From the IMG/VR virus record IMGVR_UViG_3300046517_002960, positions 64,001 through 128,000 of that record: DNA of 64,000 nucleotides. The stretch is one strand, 5' to 3'. This DNA is from a virus. Under the pieces are notes generated by a model that worked only from the letters and a program-made list of their open reading frames with translations, was not told the DNA's origin and ran no database searches. The number at the start of each line of letters is the position of its first letter. Within the stretch, counting starts at the first letter, position 1. Positions 3,811-63,523 of this stretch are shown piece by piece. The position numbers and the translations under genes were made by a program.

Positions 3811-4219
3811 CTCCGGCCTCCCCCGCTCCGGCCTGCGCCTCCGGCCGGTACGGCACGCGGAACCGGGCGTGCTGTTCCCGCGCCACCTCCTCCGGCGTCA
3901 GCTCCTCCCCGGGCGGCAGGTACCGCCAGAAGTTCACGGCCGCGGCCGGGGCCGCGTTCACCGTGTCCTCGAGCGCGACGATGCCGTGCATCTGCAGGCC
4001 GCACTGGATGACCGGCCCGTTGCTGCCGCTGGCGGGCTTCTCGGTGACCCGGAAGACGCCCCAGCCGATCAGCGGCTCGGCCACGTAGCCGGGCGGGGTG
4101 CCCCCGGGACGGCCGGCGAACACGGCCCGCCAGCCGTACTCGGCCGCGATAATCGAGACCGGCTCGTAGACCGTGACCCGCTGCGGAGCCTGCGCGCTCC
4201 TGCTGCCCGCTGCTTTCAT
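3800..4219 (-). CDS. Hypothetical protein
   Basis: ATG at 4219 with GGAGG RBS, coupled to the upstream stop; 139 aa with globular composition. Confidence 0.7.
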   Translation of the reverse strand: MKAAGSRSAQAPQRVTVYEPVSIIAAEYGWRAVFAGRPGGTPPGYVAEPLIGWGVFRVTEKPASGSNGPVIQCGLQMHGIVALEDTVNAAPAAAVNFWRYLPPGEELTPEEVAREQHARFRVPYRPEAQAGAGEAGDAL

Positions 4220-52491: not shown

Positions 52492-55400
52492 TTATCTCAC
52501 TGAGCCGTAGTACCCCCTTGAGGAAGCGCTGCCGGCCACCCCGTTCAGTGCCTGGGAGTACGCGGCCGGCGCCGCGCCCGTCAGCGCGATCAGGCGATCA
52601 AGTCTGCTGATCACCTGCATCTCGCCGGGGGTCATCCCGCCCGGGCCGATGACCCCGCCGGGCGGCACGGGCGAGACAACCTCGTTGCGCCCGGTGCCGT
52701 TGTAGGCCAAAGTGAGACCGGGAGGCAGAATGCCACCTCTGTCATACCAGCCGTAAATCGAAGCCAGGGTGGCGTACTGGGACGTACCCTGCTTCGGCAG
52801 CGGCGGCGCGTCGAACATGCTGAACGGCCTGATCGCGGTCGGGAAGCCCGTGCCGGCGGTCTGGGCGAGCTGCCCCAGCATCTGGTACACGCCTATCATC
52901 AGCGCGGGATGGCCGTGTACCAGCGCCTGGTCCTGGGTGACCCGTGCCTCCGCCCGGGCCGCGGCGATGAGGTGGCTCAGCGCGGGTGCGGACGGCACCG
53001 TGCCGGGCCTGCCCAGCGCCGCGTAAGCGGCTTCCCCGGCCCGCTGCCGGGCAGCCAGGGTGGCCAGCTCGCCCCGGATCGCGCTGCGGTTGGAGTACCA
53101 CCAGGTGCCGTGCCGGGCGTGCGCGAGCGAGTCGGCGAAGCCCTTGACGACGTGGGCGTAGTAGGTCTTCTCGGTGCTCTCATCGCTGGCCGCGTTCGCC
53201 CAGAAATCGGACAGGGACTGGGTGCCGTGCGGGGCCGGCCAGGGCGGGAACCGGTGCCCGGCCACGACGCCTCCGGACTGCAGCCGCGGCAGCACCTCGT
53301 GCGGCGGGGCCGGGATGATGGTCTCGTCGTGCCCGGTGGCGTTAACCGCTAGTGTCATCCCGGGCTTGAGCACGCCGCCCTTGTCGTACCAGTTGAACGC
53401 TCGTTCGTGTCCCCAGGCGGCAGCAGGTGAGCCGTACCTGCCGGAGATGTACGCGAGGCCCCACCGGACCTGGTTGGCGTAATCACCCAGGGCGTACGGG
53501 TGGCCGTGTCCCAGGCTGTTACCGGTCAGGTGGATGTGGCCGTTCTGCTCAGCGGTGAAGCTGCCCAGCTCGGTCGTCACGCACCAGACTTCCTGCTCGC
53601 CCGCATCCTCGTAGAAGAACCCCGGGTGCCCGACGTGCAGGGTCGGCTTGACGAACCCGATGATCAGGTTCTCAGTGCCGTACCGCTTGTCTGCGCGCTT
53701 GTAGACGCTGGGCCGGTAGCCTTCCAGGTAAACCGCCAGCCGGATGGTCTCGGCCAGCGCGCCGTCGTTCTGCGAGATCGACCGGTGGACGGTATGGCCT
53801 TCCCGCTGGTCGACCGAGCCTTCCGCCAGGAACATGGCATCCAGCCACGCCCTGCGCTGGGCGCTGGACATCGCCAGGATCATGGCGCGGTGATCCGTAT
53901 TCGGATGCCCGGCGCGCTCGGTCAGGTCCCGTGCGTACGGGGCGCTGAGCCGCCATTCCCGGTCCAGGCGCAGCTCTCCGTGCACCGTGCGCTCGCGCGT
54001 GCGGACCACGCTCCCGTGGCCTGCCAGGGCGCGCTCTATGTCCGGCCAGTTCTCCTGCTTGGTCTGGCCGATATGGAACGTGGCAGGAGAGCCGCCGTGG
54101 CGACCGGTGCCGTACTTCGGGTAGGCCTTGCGCTCCCAGCCGTCGCCGGCGACCCAGCCGAGCAGGGCAGCCTCTTCCAGGGTGATGGGCAGGCCGTCTT
54201 CCGCGTGATGCGGCTTAGCCAGGATCAGGATGCTGTCGGTCAGGCGTCCCTGGATCTCCCGCATTGACTCCCGGGGGAGCGTCGCCCGTGCGCGCTTGTC
54301 ACGCATCAGCCAGCGGTGATTCGGCGTCGTGGTGAACTCGGCCTGCGAGTTTCCGTAGCGGACCACCCGGTGCACTCCGGGATGCAGCACGGCAGTAATC
54401 CGCGTCCACTCGCTGCGCCCGGCCGCCTGGCTGTATCCGACCGTTTCATCACCGACGCGAACCTCGTCATGCTTCAGCCAGCCGCGCCGGGTCAGGACCA
54501 TCATGTCTGTGCTATAGCACTGCGGGATGCCGTAGGCCCCTGAGCTGGGGTTTACTGCCCAGGCGTTCCAGCCGCTTTCCTGGTTCCACAGGGCTTGCAG
54601 CGGCGGCCACTGATTCGCGCCCCAGCCGTACGCCCACAGGATCGAGCGGGCGAACGCCTGCGCCGCGGCAGCGGACCCGCTGTGCGGGGCGCCTGGCGCG
54701 AACCCGACGCCGCCCGGGTTCGATGCCATGGCGGCAGCCCATTTCGGCGGGATCTCGAAACCGGAGTTGCCGGCCAGCGAGGACTCGATCGTGCCGTACT
54801 GGCGGCCCAGCGCGGATAGCATCGTGGCGCCGTTGACGACGAACCCGACGTGATGCGCCGGGTTGCCGAAGAACACCATGCCGCCGGGCACCGGGCCGGA
54901 TGCCTTGCCCCACCGCTGCAGCCCGGCCGCATCAGGCCGCCCTACATTCATGCCGAACTTGTCGTACACAAAACTCACGAATCCGCTGCAGTCCCAGCCG
55001 GTGACAGGAGATGATCCGCCCCACACGTACGGCACCTTGCCCTTGAACCTCTCGGCGTAGGCCAGCACCGACTGCCCGGCGGCCGGCCCGGCCAGCATGG
55101 CCACCGCGCGGTTCGCGCTGTTCACCCCGGCCCTGATGTAGTCCTCCATGGACTTGGCCATCGCGGACGTGAAGCTGCCGTAGATCTTGTTCACGTAATC
55201 CGGGGTCAGGCCCCAGGTGCCAGCCGGGGTGCCGGGTACCGCGCCGCCCGAGGCGAATCCCGGGACGCGCATCCCGGCCGCGCCGTGCGGGGTCACCTCG
55301 ATGCCAGCCAGGCGCGGGACCCGGTCGTACAGCCCGGGGACCGGCAGCAGCGCGGGCGGCACCGCGCCCCCGGCCGCGAACCCGGGCAGCTTGCCGCGCA

Positions 55401-58400
55401 GGTGGTCGACCGCGCCGGCTTGCACCATGCGGGTGGGCACGACGACCTCGCCGGGCATCAGCAGCGCGCCTACCGAGTCGCGGCCGGGGATGCCGCCGGA
55501 GATGAACCCGCCTTCCGCGTGCGGTGACAGGAATCCGCCGGGGCTGATCGAGTAGCTTTTCCCGTCGCTGCCCTTGATGCTGAAGTTGCCGTCGCCGCGC
55601 ATGCTAACCTGCAGGCTGGTGTGCGCGGGCAGGTTGCGCAGCGCGGTGAACAGGTTGTCCGCGTTGCGCCTGCTTACGTCGATGGCGCCGGCCATCTTCT
55701 CGAAGTCGCCCATCGTCGTGCTGGCCTTGCGGCCCGCCTCCGTCAGCTTCTCCCGGCCCAGCTCCTGCCACAGCGCCGCGGCCTTGTCCCGGCTCAGGCC
55801 CAGCCCGTTGACCGCCCAGTCCACGAACTTGGCCTTGGAGTCCCTGGCAGTGAGGTTCAGCTTCGCCAGGTCCGGGCCGAACCTGGCGGTGATCTCTTTC
55901 CACAGCACGTTCGCCCTGCCGGTGGAGACGTCCAGGCCGCTGACCGCCCAGTCCGCGAATGCCTTCCTGGCATCGACGGCTGCGCCCCTGACCTCATTCA
56001 TGGCGGGCTCGAGCTGATTCGAGACCGACTTCCACAGCTGCTCAGCCTGATCGCGGGTCAGGTGCAGGGCCTCCTGCGCGAATGCCAGGAACTGCCTGTG
56101 CGCGTCGGCGGTGCTGCCGGTCAGGTTGACCAGGCTCTGGGCCAGCTGCAGTGCCGTGTCGTGGGTCCTTCTGGAGAACAGCCCGGTTTTCAGCACGGCT
56201 TCGGCGAAGCTGGTGAAGATGGCCTGGCCGCCGTTGGCGGTGATGATGGCCTGCGCCATGGCGGCGTTCAGGTTGGTGCCCAGCGCGATCGACAGGTTCT
56301 TGACGTCCTGGGTCAGGTCGGACGCGTCGGTGGTCAGCGTGGTGGTGATCTTGTCCAGGTCGTGCATCGGGTCCTTGGTCTTGCCGACCCACTTAGACAG
56401 CTCTTTGAAGCTGTTCGCGCCCTGGTACCCTCCGCGCTGCGCCAGCCCGTACAGGATGTCCGTCATCGCCTGCGAGCTCTTGGCCGCCGGCAGCATGGAC
56501 GCGACCATGTCCTTGTTGGCCTGGGCCAGCATGTCCACGCCGTCCTGGCCCTTGCCCGCCGCGTTGGCCAGCAGGGACAGGGAGTCCATCTGGGTGTTGG
56601 CCGCGTCCGCGGTGCGCAGGAACGTGTCCCGGGCCATCAGCGAGGCGGTGTTGATCCCGGTCATCGAGATCTTGCCGCCCTGCGCGGCGTCGGCCGCCAG
56701 CTTCAGGCTCATGCCGACCTTGCCGCTGGAATCGGACAGCTTGACCCCGGCCGTGGTCAGCGACTGGTACAGCCCCTCGGTCTGGGTGGCGAAGGCATTG
56801 AATCCCTGCTCGCCGCCCTCGATCGTCTTGATGAAGGTGTCCCAGCCCTGGTTCAGCTGGCCGACCTTCTCCTGCTGCTGCAGGGCCGCGAAGGTGACCG
56901 CGTTGACCGAGGCCTCCAGCTGGCCGCCGGTCCCGGTGATGTTCTGATAGCCGTTGATCAGGTTCTGCACCTTCTGGTGCATGACCGCGAAGGTGTCGTT
57001 CGCCTTGACCCCGGCCAGGTCCATCAGCGCGAACGCCTGGGAGACGCTGTACCCGTGCCGGACCAGGGAGCCGGTCTCGGCGTACAGGGTCCGGTAGGAG
57101 CCGACCAGCTTGTTCAGCTCACCGCGCAGCCTGGCCACGTCGTCCTGGATGGCCTGTTCTTTCCCGCCACCCGGCACGAACAGGTCCTTGACAGCCCGGC
57201 CGGCCGCTTTCAGGCCGTCCAGGGTGTTCCCGGAGGTGATCCCGGTGACGGCCCTGCCCCACTCAGTGCCGAATGCCTTGGCGTCGTAGCCAAGGGACCG
57301 GAGCGTGGTGCCCAGGTTGCCCCAGTTCTTGCCCTCGGCGGCCAGCAGGGCGCCGCTATCGGTCATCCGCCCGCGGAGCTCGCCGATGGCAACGGCCAGC
57401 CCGGTGGTCGCCGCCTCCGACGCTGTCATCGCCGCAGCCTGGGCCTGTACGTCCGCGATGAGGTTCTTCGTGCCGGTGTCGGTCTGGTTCATCTGGTAGA
57501 CCAGGAGGCCGATCGCGGCAGCCCCGGCGATCGCCCAGGTCCACGGGCTGGTGATCAGCGCGGCCAGCCCGGTGACCAGATTGAGCGACCCGGCTGCCGC
57601 CTTGCCCAGCGCCCCGCCCAGCAAGCCGACGTCAGTGGCGGCCTCGGCCGCGATGCCGAACTTGGAGATCCAGCCGATCAGGGACGCGATCGGGCCGATC
57701 ATCTTGACGAACATGCCGCCGAGCACAGAACCCCAGAGCCACACGCCATGCAGCGCCAGCGCGGCTGCAATCAGCGGGCCGGGCAGCTTGGAGATCACGT
57801 CCAGCACCTGCGTGGCGGCGACGAAGAACTGCAGGAAGTAGTGCGCGATCCCCGGGTCCTTGGTCAGCAGGTTGTGGATCGCCTCGGTGACGTGGCCGAC
57901 GATCTGGCCGAACTGGGCTAGGTACCCGGTCCCGCTCCTGATCATCCCGGCGAAGCTGCCCTGCTTGCCGACCCAGATGTCGATCTCGGCAACCCACCTG
58001 TCGAACAGGTCGACAACCGGCTCGAGGATTTTCTGCAGGTTCGCGGACTGGCTGTTGATGACGCCCAGGGCGCCGCCGAAGATCTCGATGCTCCGCGGCG
58101 CCATCGCTTCCATCAGGGCATCGAACTTGCCGGTCAGCGGCGGGATGTCGGCGCCCATCGCCGCAGACACGGTCCGCACGGCCTGGATCCGCACCCCGAC
58201 GTCATGCATCGACTCGGACAGCGCCGCGACCCCGGCTGCCCCGGCGATGACCGCGCCGGTCACCGCGATGATCGACTCGATGACGGCGTCCAGCGCGACG
58301 TGCCACACCTTGATCCCGCCGATGGCGCCGCCCAGGCCCCAGAATCCGCCGCCCTTGAACGCCCAGCCCTGCAGTTTCGCCCAGGCGCCCTCGGTCGCAG

Positions 58401-59626
58401 CGATCGCCGGGGTCAGGCTGTGCAGCCCGGCGGTCATCGCGGCGACCGCAGCCGCGGCGGCTGCCAGCTTCACCGGGTCCCCGCTGATGGACAGGTCGGC
58501 CAGGGTGGCTTTCAGCTTCTCGCCCCGGAGCTCCAGCGCCGCCAGCTTCGCCTCCGCGGCCGGCTCGCCTGCCAGCTCGATCTTCGCCTTAGCCAGCGCC
58601 GCGTCCAGCTTCTCGGCCCGGATCCGCAGCTCGCCCAGCGCCCTGCCCGGCGGCCCGATCGCGGTCCCGGCCAGCGAGGTGTTCAGCTTGGTCACCTCGT
58701 TGTCGATCCCGGCGATGCCGGCGGCCAGCGAGGTGACCTCCGCCATGGACAGGCCGCCCAGCCGGACCCGCTCGGCTTCAGCCCGCAGCATTCCGACTTC
58801 CGAGGTCACCGCGGCGATCTCGGCCTGGACCTCGTGAATCTGGGCCTCGTTCATCAGCCGGATGCCAGCGCCTTCCGCGCGCAGCCGCATCAGGCGGTCC
58901 TCGGCCGCGGACAGCTGGGAGAACAGCCCGGTGGTGGTGGCGGCCAGCTCGATCCGCCGCGCGTCGGATTTCAGCACGTTGATCCGGCCGACGATCACGT
59001 CCAGCTTCTTCTTCAGCTCCGTGTCCTCGATGTCGCCGGGGATCTTCTCCAGCGCCCGGCGGATCTGCTCGGCCTGGCCCTGCAGGTGCTTCAGCTCGTA
59101 CGCGGCTTCCGCGTCGTTCAGGGTCAGCTGCAGCCCGGACAGCTTGCGCTGCAGCCCGGCGGTGGCGGTGACCTCCCGGGCGATCGCCGCGTCGATCTTG
59201 CCGGTGTCCGCGCCCATCTGCAGGTTGCGCAGCTTGGTCTCCAGCCCGGACAGCTTCGCGGCTCCCTTCGCGATCGCCGCGTCCATCTTGGCCGGGTCGG
59301 CGGCCAGCTCCATGGACCGCATCTGCTTGTCCAGCAGCGCGACCTTATTCAGCAGCTTGGTCACCGCGGCGCTCATCGCCGTGTCGTCCGCGCTGAACCT
59401 GATGTTCGCGACCTTGGCGGCGGCGGCGGCCAGCTCGGCCCGCACCTTGGTCATCGCGGCGGTGACCGGCGAGGTGTCCGCGCCGATCTTGACGTCCTGC
59501 TTGGGTACGGCGGTGACGGCGGCCTTGACCTTCGCGGTCAGCTCCTGGAGGAACGAGTCAGTGTCCGGCGAGACTCGTTAAAATGACAATGAATGCCTCG
59601 CCTAGAACGCGGCCACCCGTTGCCAT
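52492..59626 (-). CDS. Tape measure protein with NlpC/P60 and SLT-type lytic transglycosylase domains and an intein; 5' end broken by a 10-nt insertion (59571-59580)
   Basis: Long Ala/Leu/Gly helical repeats; VPYVWGG...WDCSGF...HHVG; QESGWN..AVNPSSGAYGIPQ|SLG...WYDKGG. ATG 59626 gives MATGGRVLGEAFIVISPDTDSF after removing 10 nt (2374 aa). Confidence 0.92.
53518..54519 (-). mobile_element. Class 1 intein (334 aa) with LAGLIDADG endonuclease inside the TMP transglycosylase domain
   Basis: Starts CYSTD, block B TTPNHRW, ends VWCVTT...HLTGN, +1 Ser; LLGWVAGDG and WLDAMFLAEG motifs. Confidence 0.92.
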
Positions 59627-60099: not shown

Positions 60100-60444
60100 T
60101 CATCGTTCCGGCCACCGGAAATCACCGTCCTCGTACAGGGTCTTGTCGTCCGGGGCCACCGGGGCTTCCGGGTCCTCGAACGCGATGCCGGCCGCCTCCT
60201 GGTGGGCGCGCAGCGCGATGACGGCGGCCTCCTCCGGGTTCTCGGCCATCCCCAGGCTGATATCCAGCTGCTCCAGCTCCTCGTCGCTCTCGCACCGGTC
60301 GGCCAGCATGGAGTACGCGACGTTGCAGGCCTGCCGCGGGGTCAGCGCCTCGAGCCCGCGCGCCGACGAGCGGAGGAGCGTGCCGTCGACCCGGCCCGCG
60401 AACCTGGCTGTCCAGGCGAGGAGCGCGACGGCTGCTCGGTAGGG
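60100..60444 (-). CDS. Tail assembly chaperone, second (frameshift-extended) frame
   Basis: Open -1 frame PYRAAVALLAW...LTPRQACNVAYSML overlapping the TAC 3' end; no obvious independent start. Confidence 0.7.
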   Translation of the reverse strand, partial: PYRAAVALLAWTARFAGRVDGTLLRSSARGLEALTPRQACNVAYSMLADRCESDEELEQLDISLGMAENPEEAAVIALRAHQEAAGIAFEDPEAPVAPDDKTLYEDGDFRWPER

Positions 60445-60899
60445 CGGCCGGCCACCATCTCGATGACCTTGGTCACCACGTCCATCAGGTCGTCTGCGCC
60501 GGCCTTGGACTCGCAGGCGTGGTCCTCGAACGCGCGCCAGTCGCCCGCGTCGAACTCCGGGCACGCCTGGGCCGACCCGGCCTTGCAGTCCTCGCACTCC
60601 CCGCAGCCGGGGCTGCCCGGGTGGATGCAGTCCTTGAGCATGGAGTACAGCGCGCCGAGCGCCCGCGGGTCCTGCACGTTCACGTCGGCGAACGCGGAGA
60701 ACTTGAGCAACGGCATCAGGCCGATCTTCTCGGCGATGCGGAACCGCCGGCCGGCGAGCTCCACGGTCCGCTCGCTGGTGACGATCTTGTCCGCGACGAC
60801 GATCTCGGTGGGCGGTGGCGGCTCCACGCCCGCCACGGCGCCCTGGATCCCGGCGAGCTCGGCGTCGAAGTCGATGTCCAGCCCTGCTTCCTCGGACAC
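60342..60899 (-). CDS. Tail assembly chaperone
   Basis: Between major tail and TMP genes; ends with the typical RPT.QPS.SS.G tail; GTG start. Confidence 0.8.
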   Translation of the reverse strand: MSEEAGLDIDFDAELAGIQGAVAGVEPPPPTEIVVADKIVTSERTVELAGRRFRIAEKIGLMPLLKFSAFADVNVQDPRALGALYSMLKDCIHPGSPGCGECEDCKAGSAQACPEFDAGDWRAFEDHACESKAGADDLMDVVTKVIEMVAGRPTEQPSRSSPGQPGSRAGSTARSSARRRAGSRR

Positions 60900-60981: not shown

Positions 60982-62007
60982 TCAGGTGCCGGGCAGGCCG
61001 TAGACCGGGTAGCGCGCGATGCGGCTGGCCGCGTTCCATGTCGACTTGAGTGACACGGCTGCCGTGACACCGCCAGTGACACTGTAGTCAGGCAGAATGG
61101 TGCCGAAGAAGTACTGCGGCAGCTGTGACGGAAGCGACGACGGGTAAAGATAGAAGTTGCGCGGCAGGCCGTCAGTGGCTGATACGTACGTTTGCGTTGT
61201 AGCGGTGTCGTAGAAGCCGCTGAAGTCTCCTGAGGCGTCCGGGAGTCCTGCGACCCAGATGAGGTTCTGGTCCGATCTGTTACCTCTCGCCCCTGCGAGC
61301 GAGCGGGCCAGTCATTTCTGCTGGCCTCTGCATATCTCTATGCAGGCCGGACTGTATCTTCACCCGCGTGGGGTGCCGCGTACACAGTCTCTGAACCTTC
61401 TCGTCGGCTTGCGCCAGGCGAGCTCGGCTGCTGATTACCCCTGCTGGCTGCTTTTCGGACCGTCGCGCTCGCGCTTTCGCGCCACGCTGTGGTGCAGCCA
61501 GGTGACCCGGGCGTCCCAGCAATTCTCGCAGTTTTCACAGTAGAATCACTTCTACCGGGGGCAAACACCCATAGCAGTTACATCAACTTTCGCAACTGTA
61601 AAATTGATGCTCCAGGCGCTCAAAAACGCCATGGGACTCGCTGTTGGATTGGCGCCACCTGGGCCATCTACAGCCACATAGGCGATGCCGTTTCGCGTTC
61701 TGTTACCTCTCGCCTAAGCGAGCGGGCAGGTCGTTTCCGCCTGCCTCTGCATATCTCTATGCAGACCGGACCATATCTTCACCCGCATGGGGTGCCACGT
61801 ACATGGTCTCTGAACCTTCTCGTCGGGGCTGACCCAGGCGAGCTCGGCTGCTGATTGCCCCTGCCGGCCACTTCTCAGAACCGTCGCGCCCGGGCTTTCG
61901 CCCCACGCTGTGGTGTGACCGGGTGATGCGGGTGTTCCAGCAATTCTCGCGGTTTGCACTGAAAGATCGCTCTCTCAGGCGGCCAGCCGACCGTGAATAC
62001 GACTCAT
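60982..62007 (-). CDS. Major tail (tube) protein, 145 aa, three exons: 62007-61990, 61695-61567, 61272-60982
   Basis: Spliced product MSRIHG|RNGIAYV...WSINFTVAKVDVTAMG|DQNLIWVAGLPDASGDFSGFYD...NFYLYP...YFFGTI... is a continuous actinophage-type tail tube sequence; GGAAAGGTG RBS; directly upstream of the TAC. Confidence 0.9.
61273..61566 (-). ncRNA. Group I self-splicing intron 2 (294 nt, no ORF)
   Basis: Follows exon U (ATGGGT|), ends in G; P AATTGCTGG, Q AATCAGCAG, R GGTTCAGAGACT, S AAGATACAGTCC; P1 GGGT/GCCC with U-G pair. Confidence 0.93.
61696..61989 (-). ncRNA. Group I self-splicing intron 1 (294 nt, no ORF)
   Basis: Follows exon U (CACGGT|), ends in G; P AATTGCTGG, Q AATCAGCAG, R GGTTCAGAGACC, S AAGATATGGTCC; P1 CGGT/GCCG with U-G pair. 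Confidence 0.93.
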
Positions 62008-62211
62008 GTATCCACACCTTTCCCTGCCTGCGCAGAGATGCCGAGGCCAGCCAAGCTGGTAACAGCCGTTAGACCGGGCACCGGACTCCGCGGAACGTGA
62101 GTAACGGAGCCGGCTCCGCCATCCGTGCAGACCCTGGACCGGGGGCAGCTACGGGGCCACGGCAGCTATCAGGAGTAACGATAACGCAGTCAGTTTGTGG
62201 ACAATGAGAGC

Positions 62212-62516
62212 ATGAGCGATCCCGGCACGGAAAGGTGGCTGCCGCTGCCCGGGTACGCGGGTTTTACGAAGTGAGCGATCAGGGCCGCGTGTACTCCCTG
62301 CCCAGGGCGGCGACACGCGGGGGCCTGCTCAGGCTGTCCGTAAATTCCCGCGGTTACCGGCACGCGGCGCTGTGCAAGTACGGCCGGGTGCGCGTCATCC
62401 CGGCCGGGCGCCTGGTCCTGATGACGTTTGACCGCCCGCCGCGGCCCGGCGAGCGGGCGCTGCACGGCCCCGGCGGGCCGGGAGATGACAGCCGGGCCAA
62501 CCTGCGGTGGGGGTAG
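62212..62516 (+). CDS. NUMOD4-HNH homing endonuclease, -1 frameshifted at G GGT TTT (62259-62265) and C-terminally truncated
   Basis: MSDPGTERWLPLPGYAGF joined to YEVSDQGRVYS...RLVLMTF..RP.GERALHGPGGPGDDSRANLRWG*. Confidence 0.75.
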
Positions 62517-62555: not shown

Positions 62556-63056
62556 GTGGACAGCGAGGCCGTCAGGTCCGCGGCGCTGATCGCTGCCTCC
62601 TCCGTCGTCCCGCGAGGGACCAGCGCGCCAGACCTGACCCAGTACGCAGGACAGCTGATCCCGTGGATTACCGCAGCCCCGACCGCCGGGCTGGACGTGA
62701 CCGTGCTCCTGGACGGCACGCTCATCCTGCACAGCTCACACGGAGGAGAAATGGCCTTCACCGCCGCCGTCACCGATACCAGCGTCGTCATCACCGGCAC
62801 CTGCAAGGACGCCGGGGGCAACGCGACCGGCGAGCAGGTCCGCTGGACTACCGACGACCCGAATGGCACCATCCTGGCCCCGTCCGTCTCCGCCAACTCC
62901 GGTACCTGGACCGGCACGGTCACCGGCACTACCGGTACCGTCAACGTCTCCGCGAACGCCGCGCAGACCGCGGGCGTGCCGCCGTTCCTGGCCCAGGTCA
63001 CGGTCGGCCCCGGCCCTACCGTCACCATCGAGGGCGATGTGGTCATTAACCACTGA
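62556..63056 (+). CDS. Protein with C-terminal Ig-like (Big-type) beta domain; internal strong start at 62751
   Basis: Thr/Gly/Val beta-strand pattern (VVITGTCKDAGGN...VRWTTDD...GTVNVSA); GGAGGAG RBS before ATG 62751. Confidence 0.65.
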   Translation: MDSEAVRSAALIAASSVVPRGTSAPDLTQYAGQLIPWITAAPTAGLDVTVLLDGTLILHSSHGGEMAFTAAVTDTSVVITGTCKDAGGNATGEQVRWTTDDPNGTILAPSVSANSGTWTGTVTGTTGTVNVSANAAQTAGVPPFLAQVTVGPGPTVTIEGDVVINH

Positions 63057-63088: not shown

Positions 63089-63523
63089 TCAGGCAGCTTC
63101 CGCCTCATCGCAATCGCATCTCCCTGTGCGCGCCTGCGCCAGGCGGCAGTTGGCGCACAGGACCCGCCAGCCGGGCGGCCAGCCCTGCTTGCGAAGCTGG
63201 AACGCCCGGGGGAACCCGCCGCCGCTATCGCTGCCCGGTTTGTCCCGGCCCGTGCTCACCAGCATGAGCACCACGGCCCGGGACGTGCCGCAGCACTCGC
63301 ACTGGCTGTCGCCGTACACGGCCAGGGCCTCGGCGACGACTTTGGACTGGTAGGTGGCGCACCGCTCGGCGTTGCACGTGCTGCACGCCGCCGCCCGGCC
63401 GTCCTTCGCCCGCTTGTTCACCGGGAAGTCGTCTTCGAGATCCTTGACCAGCCCGCAGCCAGAGCAGCGCTTCATCCCCTCCGGCACCGGCCCGGCTGCG
63501 GCGGTATCCGTGACATCGGGCAT
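63089..63523 (-). CDS. Zn-finger + endonuclease VII/His-Me-finger-like protein, catalytic residues degenerate
   Basis: KRCSGCG.VK...F......DG....CSTC; YG...CECCG...; G.PPGWRVLCANC; the expected IDH is replaced by LVS and NCN by NCR. Confidence 0.7.
   Translation of the reverse strand: MPDVTDTAAAGPVPEGMKRCSGCGLVKDLEDDFPVNKRAKDGRAAACSTCNAERCATYQSKVVAEALAVYGDSQCECCGTSRAVVLMLVSTGRDKPGSDSGGGFPRAFQLRKQGWPPGWRVLCANCRLAQARTGRCDCDEAEAA

Follow-up and report, generated by a model that had tools for sequence, protein, structure and literature searches.

Two predicted ORF-less group I introns in the tail tube gene of an uncultured high-GC phage, and the virion-gene intron family to which they belong

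The tail tube gene of the phage represented by IMG/VR record IMGVR_UViG_3300046517_002960 is, judged from its sequence, interrupted by two group I introns, which confirms the observation made in an initial annotation of this DNA. The gene lies in a stretch of 64,000 nucleotides (positions 64,001 to 128,000 of the record), referred to here as the window. We consider it probable that both introns are selfish, ORF-less ribozymes that excise themselves, that they represent site-specific lineages joined by recombination, and that they spread by homing with the help of adjacent nucleases, with rare moves to new sites by guide matching; they would then be passengers of the gene and not a device for its control.

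The coordinates of the locus are collected in Table 1. The two elements of 294 nt were reproduced in position and frame: both are in phase 0, are preceded by an exon U and end in G, and they are identical to each other at 241/289 positions (83%). Recomputation also agreed with the initial annotation in that the joined exons (18, 129 and 291 nt) encode an uninterrupted protein of 145 aa and that the unspliced reading frame ends after 10 codons. Intron-less alleles read across both sites, and the junctions are thereby fixed independently: no intron was found in 75 of the 80 viral loci encoding a relative of the tail tube protein, whose proteins are uninterrupted at both junctions, and the product of the intron-less allele L235 is 97% identical over residues 1-145, with no break at either junction. 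The N-terminus encoded by exon 1 matches that of intron-less alleles, and its ribosome-binding region is common to allele L251. Skipping of exon 2 would be in frame, with a predicted product of 102 aa. From the intact structure of both introns, and from the dependence of the sole tail tube gene on splicing, we infer that both are self-splicing.

Table 1. Features of the tail tube locus (window positions, except for the last row).
Feature	Position	Strand	Size	Basis or remark
Tape measure gene, tail operon	52492-59626	minus		downstream of tube gene
Putative tail assembly chaperone gene, between tube and tape measure genes	60342-60899	minus		position, conserved synteny
Exon 3 (codons 50-145 and stop)	60982-61272	minus	291 nt	tail tube homologues
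Intron 2, ORF-less group I, after Gly49	61273-61566	minus	294 nt	RF00028 and tree
Intron 2, P1 guide	61562-61559	minus
Intron 2, P3	61531-61527 / 61380-61376	minus
Intron 2, P7	61389-61384 / 61355-61350	minus
Intron 2, P9	61345-61328	minus
Intron 2, terminal G	61273	minus
Exon 2 (codons 7-49)	61567-61695	minus	129 nt
Intron 1, ORF-less group I, after Gly6	61696-61989	minus	294 nt	RF00028 and covariation
Intron 1, P1 guide	61983-61980	minus
Intron 1, P3	61952-61948 / 61799-61795	minus
Intron 1, P4	5' strand from 61942 / 61853-61849	minus
Intron 1, P7	61808-61803 / 61774-61769	minus
Intron 1, P8	61794-61780	minus
Intron 1, P9	61764-61747	minus
Intron 1, conserved 3' motif	61706-61701	minus
Intron 1, terminal G	61696	minus
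Exon 1 (codons 1-6)	61990-62007	minus	18 nt	ends in U of P1 U.G pair
Conserved non-coding leader element upstream of tube gene	62085-62162 (approximate ends)	minus
NUMOD4/HNH remnant	62235-62516	plus	93 aa	stops before last HNH helix
Beta-rich, Thr/Val-rich ORF	62556-63056	plus	166 aa	opposite strand inside tail operon
Endo VII/HNH-like ORF	63089-63523	minus	144 aa
Leader element copies, genome C1	184927, 183325, 179574, 174728, 172510, 116460, 108978	minus

The identification of both elements as ORF-less group I introns was upheld by the Rfam covariance model, by an intact core and by the boundaries given by P1 and the terminal G. Introns 1 and 2 scored 55.6 and 54.7 bits against RF00028 (E about 1e-11), above its gathering score of 50 bits; both contain the core helices P3, P4, P6, P7 and P8 with the P3-P7 pseudoknot, and neither has an internal homing endonuclease ORF, P8 being a 15-nt hairpin. 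Among 18 helix pairs that differ between the two introns, 17 are still canonical and 14 are double changes. The compensatory pairs of P7 and P3 quoted in the initial annotation are correct; the GAAA-capped hairpin that it had assigned to P5 forms the end of P5b, within an extended P5. In either intron P10 is weak, with about 2 bp.

Covariation was analyzed in an alignment of 86 ORF-less introns of the same family (mean identity 64%). Without structural input, covarying pairs were recovered in P2, P3, P5, P5a, P5b, P6a, P7, P8, P9, P9.0, P9.1 and P9.2, and the top 37 pairs were all helix pairs. For 77 named pairs, 94% of the cells were canonical as compared to 32-41% when partners were slid, a set in which P6 had been entered one base off (the +1 register is 100% paired), and double changes numbered 1569 versus about 200 with slid partners. 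Moreover, the G-binding G-C pair of P7, which follows a bulged base, is invariant in all 86 introns, and the 4-bp P1 pairs with its own exon in 75 of them, as compared to 14.5 after shuffling. The layout appears IC-like, with a P5a/P5b extension carrying an A-rich bulge and no P7.1/P7.2. Subgroups IC1 and IC2 comprise the group I introns with a Tetrahymena-like P4-P6 domain, which the window introns resemble in the P5 extension, the A-rich bulge, the GAAA-capped P5b, P6a/P6b, the absence of P7.1/P7.2 and the presence of P9.0-P9.2; they differ in a P1 of only 4 bp, and neither P2.1 nor P5c was seen in the covariation of the 86 introns.

With such ribozymes, splicing would begin in the late mRNA, when guanosine at the invariant G-C pair of P7 attacks the U.G pair of P1; the 5' exon would then attack after the terminal G, and the exons would be ligated. 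Both introns would have to be removed in this way to yield the 145-aa tube subunit.

As for the product itself, profile and structure predictions support the proposal that it is a siphovirus-type tail tube protein with a beta-sandwich fold. A total of 694 homologues were found, many being fragments of 98-121 aa, and Pfam tail tube families turn up among the deeper ones. P0006, an intron-less homologue 92% identical to the spliced protein, was used in its place for profile and structure work: it matched the major tail protein family PHROG 10528 (E 2.4e-7), and its structure, predicted from a deep alignment with a pLDDT of 90, retrieved tail tube and related tail proteins of 80alpha, monocin, R4C and lambda in Foldseek (E 3e-8 to 1e-5), with TM values of 0.73-0.79 for the first three. 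Sequence searches of the PDB gave no match. The gene at the chaperone position had no family match. Several further features of the tail region were recorded. The tape measure ORF (52492-59454, minus strand) contains, within its transglycosylase region, an intein-like insert at residues about 1668-1985, which starts with Cys, ends in His-x-x-Gly-Asn and matches LAGLIDADG (E 3e-4). At the start of the gene (59552-59626, minus strand), a well-placed start codon leads into a TTA, with the reading frame picked up again 10 nt further on, a candidate UUA bypass. The 166-aa ORF is kept in relatives and matches no known family.

The source record comprises 190,216 nt with 71% GC and 39 predicted tRNA genes, and is classified as a provirus in IMG/VR; an array of 38 predicted tRNA genes is located at 149960-157547 of genome C1, with no UAA anticodon in the ARAGORN list. 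The tail tube gene is present in a single copy, the capsid gene is intron-less, and no further intron of either core type was found in the 190-kb record. The record contains an Lsr2 gene; WhiB and reverse transcriptase genes were not found in it. As neither a tube homologue nor a whole-intron match was present among GenBank phages, no cultured relative was identified. The Lsr2 gene, together with related introns in genomes of cultured strains of Streptomyces, Kitasatospora and Saccharothrix, makes an actinobacterial host probable, in line with the earlier reading of this DNA as that of an actinophage.

We then considered how this allele could have arisen. The genes flanking the tube gene are mostly 85-100% identical to those of the intron-less L235 on both sides, whereas exon 2 is nearer to the intron-bearing L234 (91%) than to this backbone relative (81%), a mosaic call that rests on 129 nt, and towards its 5' end the tube gene is nearer to L237 and L234 than to L235. 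As the flanks are L235-like, exon 2 is L234-like and the ribosome-binding region is L251-like, the 5' portion has the appearance of a recombinant segment that was imported into an intron-less backbone. In the history that we favour, the leader, exon 1 and intron 1 would have come from an L251-like allele, and exon 2 with intron 2 would have been donated by an L234-like one. The low GC3 of exon 2 was also considered as a mark of recoding and rejected, since the intron-less L235 and L236 show the same. Small frameshifts without TTA were seen in the tube genes of L234 (2720-2730) and L236 (about 2980), and may be assembly errors or signs of pseudogenes.

The driver of this exchange is most likely gene conversion started by free-standing endonucleases of HNH or Endo VII type encoded upstream, that is, trans or collaborative homing (PMC3984707). 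An intact endonuclease ORF is found no more than 400 nt upstream in 8 of 13 intron-bearing alleles versus 7 of 56 intron-less ones (Fisher p 6e-4, odds ratio 11-fold; the test ignores relatedness among alleles, and the set of nuclease references was small). Alleles L234, L237 and L251 carry, just upstream and on the other strand, an intact free-standing nuclease of NUMOD4-HNH, HNH and Endo VII type, respectively. This association suggests trans homing, which the initial annotation had named as one possible route of spread and which thus gains support. Two ORFs of the window were rejected as mobilisers: the 93-aa NUMOD4 ORF, which is truncated and also occurs in the intron-less L235 and relatives, and the Endo VII-like ORF, which is 76% identical to its counterpart in L235. 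In many relatives the NUMOD4-HNH remnant has an identical truncation point, with up to 93% conservation, and it may be a domesticated DNA-binding protein.

The same ribozymes could instead have spread by homologous recombination and drift only, the nucleases being independent parasites of an often-exchanged locus. The window allele is itself one of the five intron-bearing alleles without an intact adjacent nuclease, seven intron-less alleles have one, the slot is held by three unrelated nuclease types, and phage genomes are mosaic anyway. However, the 11-fold odds ratio for co-occurrence speaks against such independence, as does the position of every insertion site in the 5' third of the tube gene; moreover, same-site introns are about 90% identical where the phage exons are just 70-73% identical. 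We therefore regard this explanation as unlikely, although it is the strongest competitor to nuclease-assisted homing.

The initial annotation had also raised the possibility of splicing-controlled tail assembly, in which slow or conditional splicing, or skipping of exon 2, would time or limit tail formation and the introns would be kept for that purpose. The near confinement of the family to virion genes would fit such a role, as would the in-frame skipping of exon 2, given that exon skipping is reported for Twort orf142 (PMC11878797), and the presence in three relatives of 7-8 nt gaps containing TTA within this 5' region, similar to the UUA bypass sites of Streptomyces phages (PMC10732093). 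Yet near-identical relatives lack both introns: the 75 intron-less loci include the closest ones (96-97% aa), which makes a regulatory role unlikely and leaves the earlier suggestion unsupported. Furthermore, the sites and even the catalytic cores differ between alleles, the capsid gene of this phage has no intron, and no sensor domain was seen. Altogether, we give control by splicing a low probability. The TTA-containing gaps (L018, about 3945-3955; L024, about 3945-3956; L047, about 3938-3948) are flanked by matched or near-matched codons around codons 31-35 of the tube gene, and the L047 allele has a gap and an intron together.

Another possibility is that one intron was copied within the gene by local reverse splicing, which would make the two elements sisters, as the initial annotation supposed when it described them as copies produced by local spread. 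They share their length and 83% identity, and belong to the same subclade rich in tail tube introns. For each, however, another phage carries a closer relative (90-91%) at the corresponding site. In the tree, intron 1 clusters with further introns from codon 6 (support 95/88), and it matches the codon-6 intron of L251 at 268 of 294 positions; the partner of intron 2 (support 100/99) is the intron at codon 49 of L234, with 266 of 294 positions identical. These same-site relatives indicate that the pair did not arise by recent local duplication. A clade of introns 1 and 2 was weakly rejected (AU p 0.04, a borderline value), and reverse transcriptase was not found in the record, so that a sister relationship appears very improbable; an older move within the gene could have founded the codon-49 lineage. 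Finally, that the introns are dead elements in a pseudogene of a decaying prophage, as the provirus class might suggest, is hardly credible, because every core and peripheral helix is preserved, with compensatory changes, the exons contain no stops and match an intact allele at 97% identity, and the record has no other tail tube gene.

Upstream of the tube gene, the free-standing endonuclease genes of relatives insert just downstream of a conserved leader element (pattern: CCGNGGCC, variable hairpin, GGAGCCGG). The element is kept in many relatives, and is duplicated beside inserted nucleases. Seven short copies were found in genome C1, as compared to 0-1 in shuffled sequence; most directly precede a ribosome-binding site on the late-gene strand, and the element often lies about 20 nt past a -10-like hexamer. 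It had no Rfam match, and is possibly a late-gene leader RNA or part of a promoter.

Pattern scans and profiles showed that the window introns belong to a family of at least 118 distinct introns of this core type, at variance with the local, minimal family envisaged at first. Among the 118 listed, 103 were assigned to host genes by BLASTX, 89 of them in three kinds of major capsid gene and 14 in two unrelated tail tube genes. Seven others lie in other capsid or portal genes according to PHROG (PHROG 13692 being a capsid protein per the Atlas), six were placed by context in short exons of a capsid gene, and two were not placed; no DNA-metabolism gene was found among the hosts of the assigned introns. 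Long P8 inserts are present in 19 of the 118, and several encode endonucleases; all 11 introns in the tube family studied here are ORF-less. Abundant mRNA and conserved sequence may, as a guess, account for this bias towards capsid and tube genes. Members of the family were also noticed in capsid-protease genes of Ktedonobacteria (Chloroflexota) genomes (L133, L138), and distant low-GC relatives of the core appear, by eye, to interrupt tRNA genes on large low-GC viral contigs (L105, L122-L125). The capsid genes of L091, L095, L107, L110, L111, L115, L168 and L195 each contain at least four to five introns, some exons of multi-intron capsid genes being just 30-60 nt, and the portal gene of L217 (2384-3181) has two introns with different core types.

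In this tube family, seven insertion sites were found, all within codons 6-49, which is the part of the gene closest to the endonuclease slot. Across the family, 14 of 44 site clusters among the matches listed (clusters that are slightly over-split) end in CGGU, versus 3.6% in the background, and a 4-nt guide match, mostly CGGU or GCCU, seems to be favoured at new sites. Rare new sites would thus be reached by guide matches, via reverse splicing, or via microhomology recombination with subsequent selection for inserts that can be spliced; the bias could also be a survival filter acting on any insertion route. A further 29 matches hit the 3' end alone, and about 20 of the 27 inspected carry other cores. 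The same P1-P2 and P9.1-P9.2 ends appear to surround different cores in L003 (3601-3871), in L251 (1-170, minus strand) and in the 29 partial matches in L084-L217, the cores being of the BAKA type and, apparently, at least one more type. Such conserved ends round unrelated cores suggest recombination between ribozymes. A wider picture, which we hold only tentatively and consider doubtful as a whole, is that of a clan specialised on the most abundant virion genes of phages of actinobacteria and Ktedonobacteria, in which three or more cores have been swapped within one P1-P2/P9.1-P9.2 end pair, and which would reach unrelated genes by 4-nt guide matches through reverse splicing at the RNA level, spreading thereafter via free-standing endonucleases. 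No description of this intron family was found in the open-access literature, subscription journals lying outside the scope of the search; apparently new are the core type, the extent of the clan and its bias towards virion genes, the occurrence of different cores between common ends, and the link to adjacent nucleases.

The single gene described here is in itself unsurprising, as tail tube genes with several introns and virion-gene introns of high-GC phages have already been published. Its value lies in the family, which indicates that capsid and tail genes of uncultured high-GC phages commonly contain group I introns, runs counter to the idea that DNA-metabolism genes are the favoured hosts of phage introns, and draws attention to intron-split genes at which gene callers report truncated proteins. 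The family also offers compact, GC-rich natural ribozymes with abundant covariation, and its members in cultured Streptomyces, Kitasatospora and Saccharothrix strains make splicing and mobility testable. Furthermore, the same guide at unrelated genes bears on reverse splicing as a route of group I intron movement, and different cores at one site bear on recombination of group I intron domains. If a clan with swapped cores and guide matching were to be confirmed, it would be a natural system in which to test transposition by reverse splicing, for which there is no direct evidence in group I introns (PMC3984707).

With respect to known systems, collaborative homing of an ORF-less intron with a free-standing endonuclease has been reviewed (PMC3984707), one case being F-CphI of cyanophage S-PM2, which has an Endo VII motif (PMC6083498). 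Our case differs in that it consists of a statistical association over alleles, with three nuclease types and seven sites, the window allele being without a nuclease. The surprise first expressed at the host gene does not hold, as introns in virion genes have been described before: according to PMC11878797, which cites Landthaler and Shub (1999), the tail tube gene orf142 of Staphylococcus phage Twort has three group I introns, and introns in capsid and tail genes are known from Cluster J mycobacteriophages (PMC3706429). Twort orf142 thus resembles our gene in having several group I introns in one tail tube gene; the comparison is by description, and sets a low-GC Firmicutes myovirus against a high-GC siphovirus-type tube gene whose introns have a P5-extension core. 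The orf142 introns belong to subgroup IA2.

A close parallel in host and gene type is found in Cluster J, where Pope et al. (2013, PMC3706429) described an ORF-less intron of 265 nt in a minor tail gene of BAKA and Optimus, its splicing in vivo by RT-PCR, and an intron with an endonuclease in the capsid gene of LittleE. These share with the window introns a high-GC actinobacterial phage, virion structural genes, an ORF-less member and the U/G boundaries. No Cluster J match for intron 2 was found in 50,697 phage records. An intron of the BAKA type occupies the codon-6 site in L003, where it is 67% identical to the Cluster J minor-tail intron, and L251 has another at a second site. The BAKA intron and the window introns agree in their P1-P2 layout and in the S-P9-P9.1 3' domain (z 17.5 and 13.6), whereas the P3-P8 core fails to align: in BAKA, P5 is short and the P8 region long, and in the window introns P5 is extended by P5a/P5b with an A-rich bulge and P8 is short.
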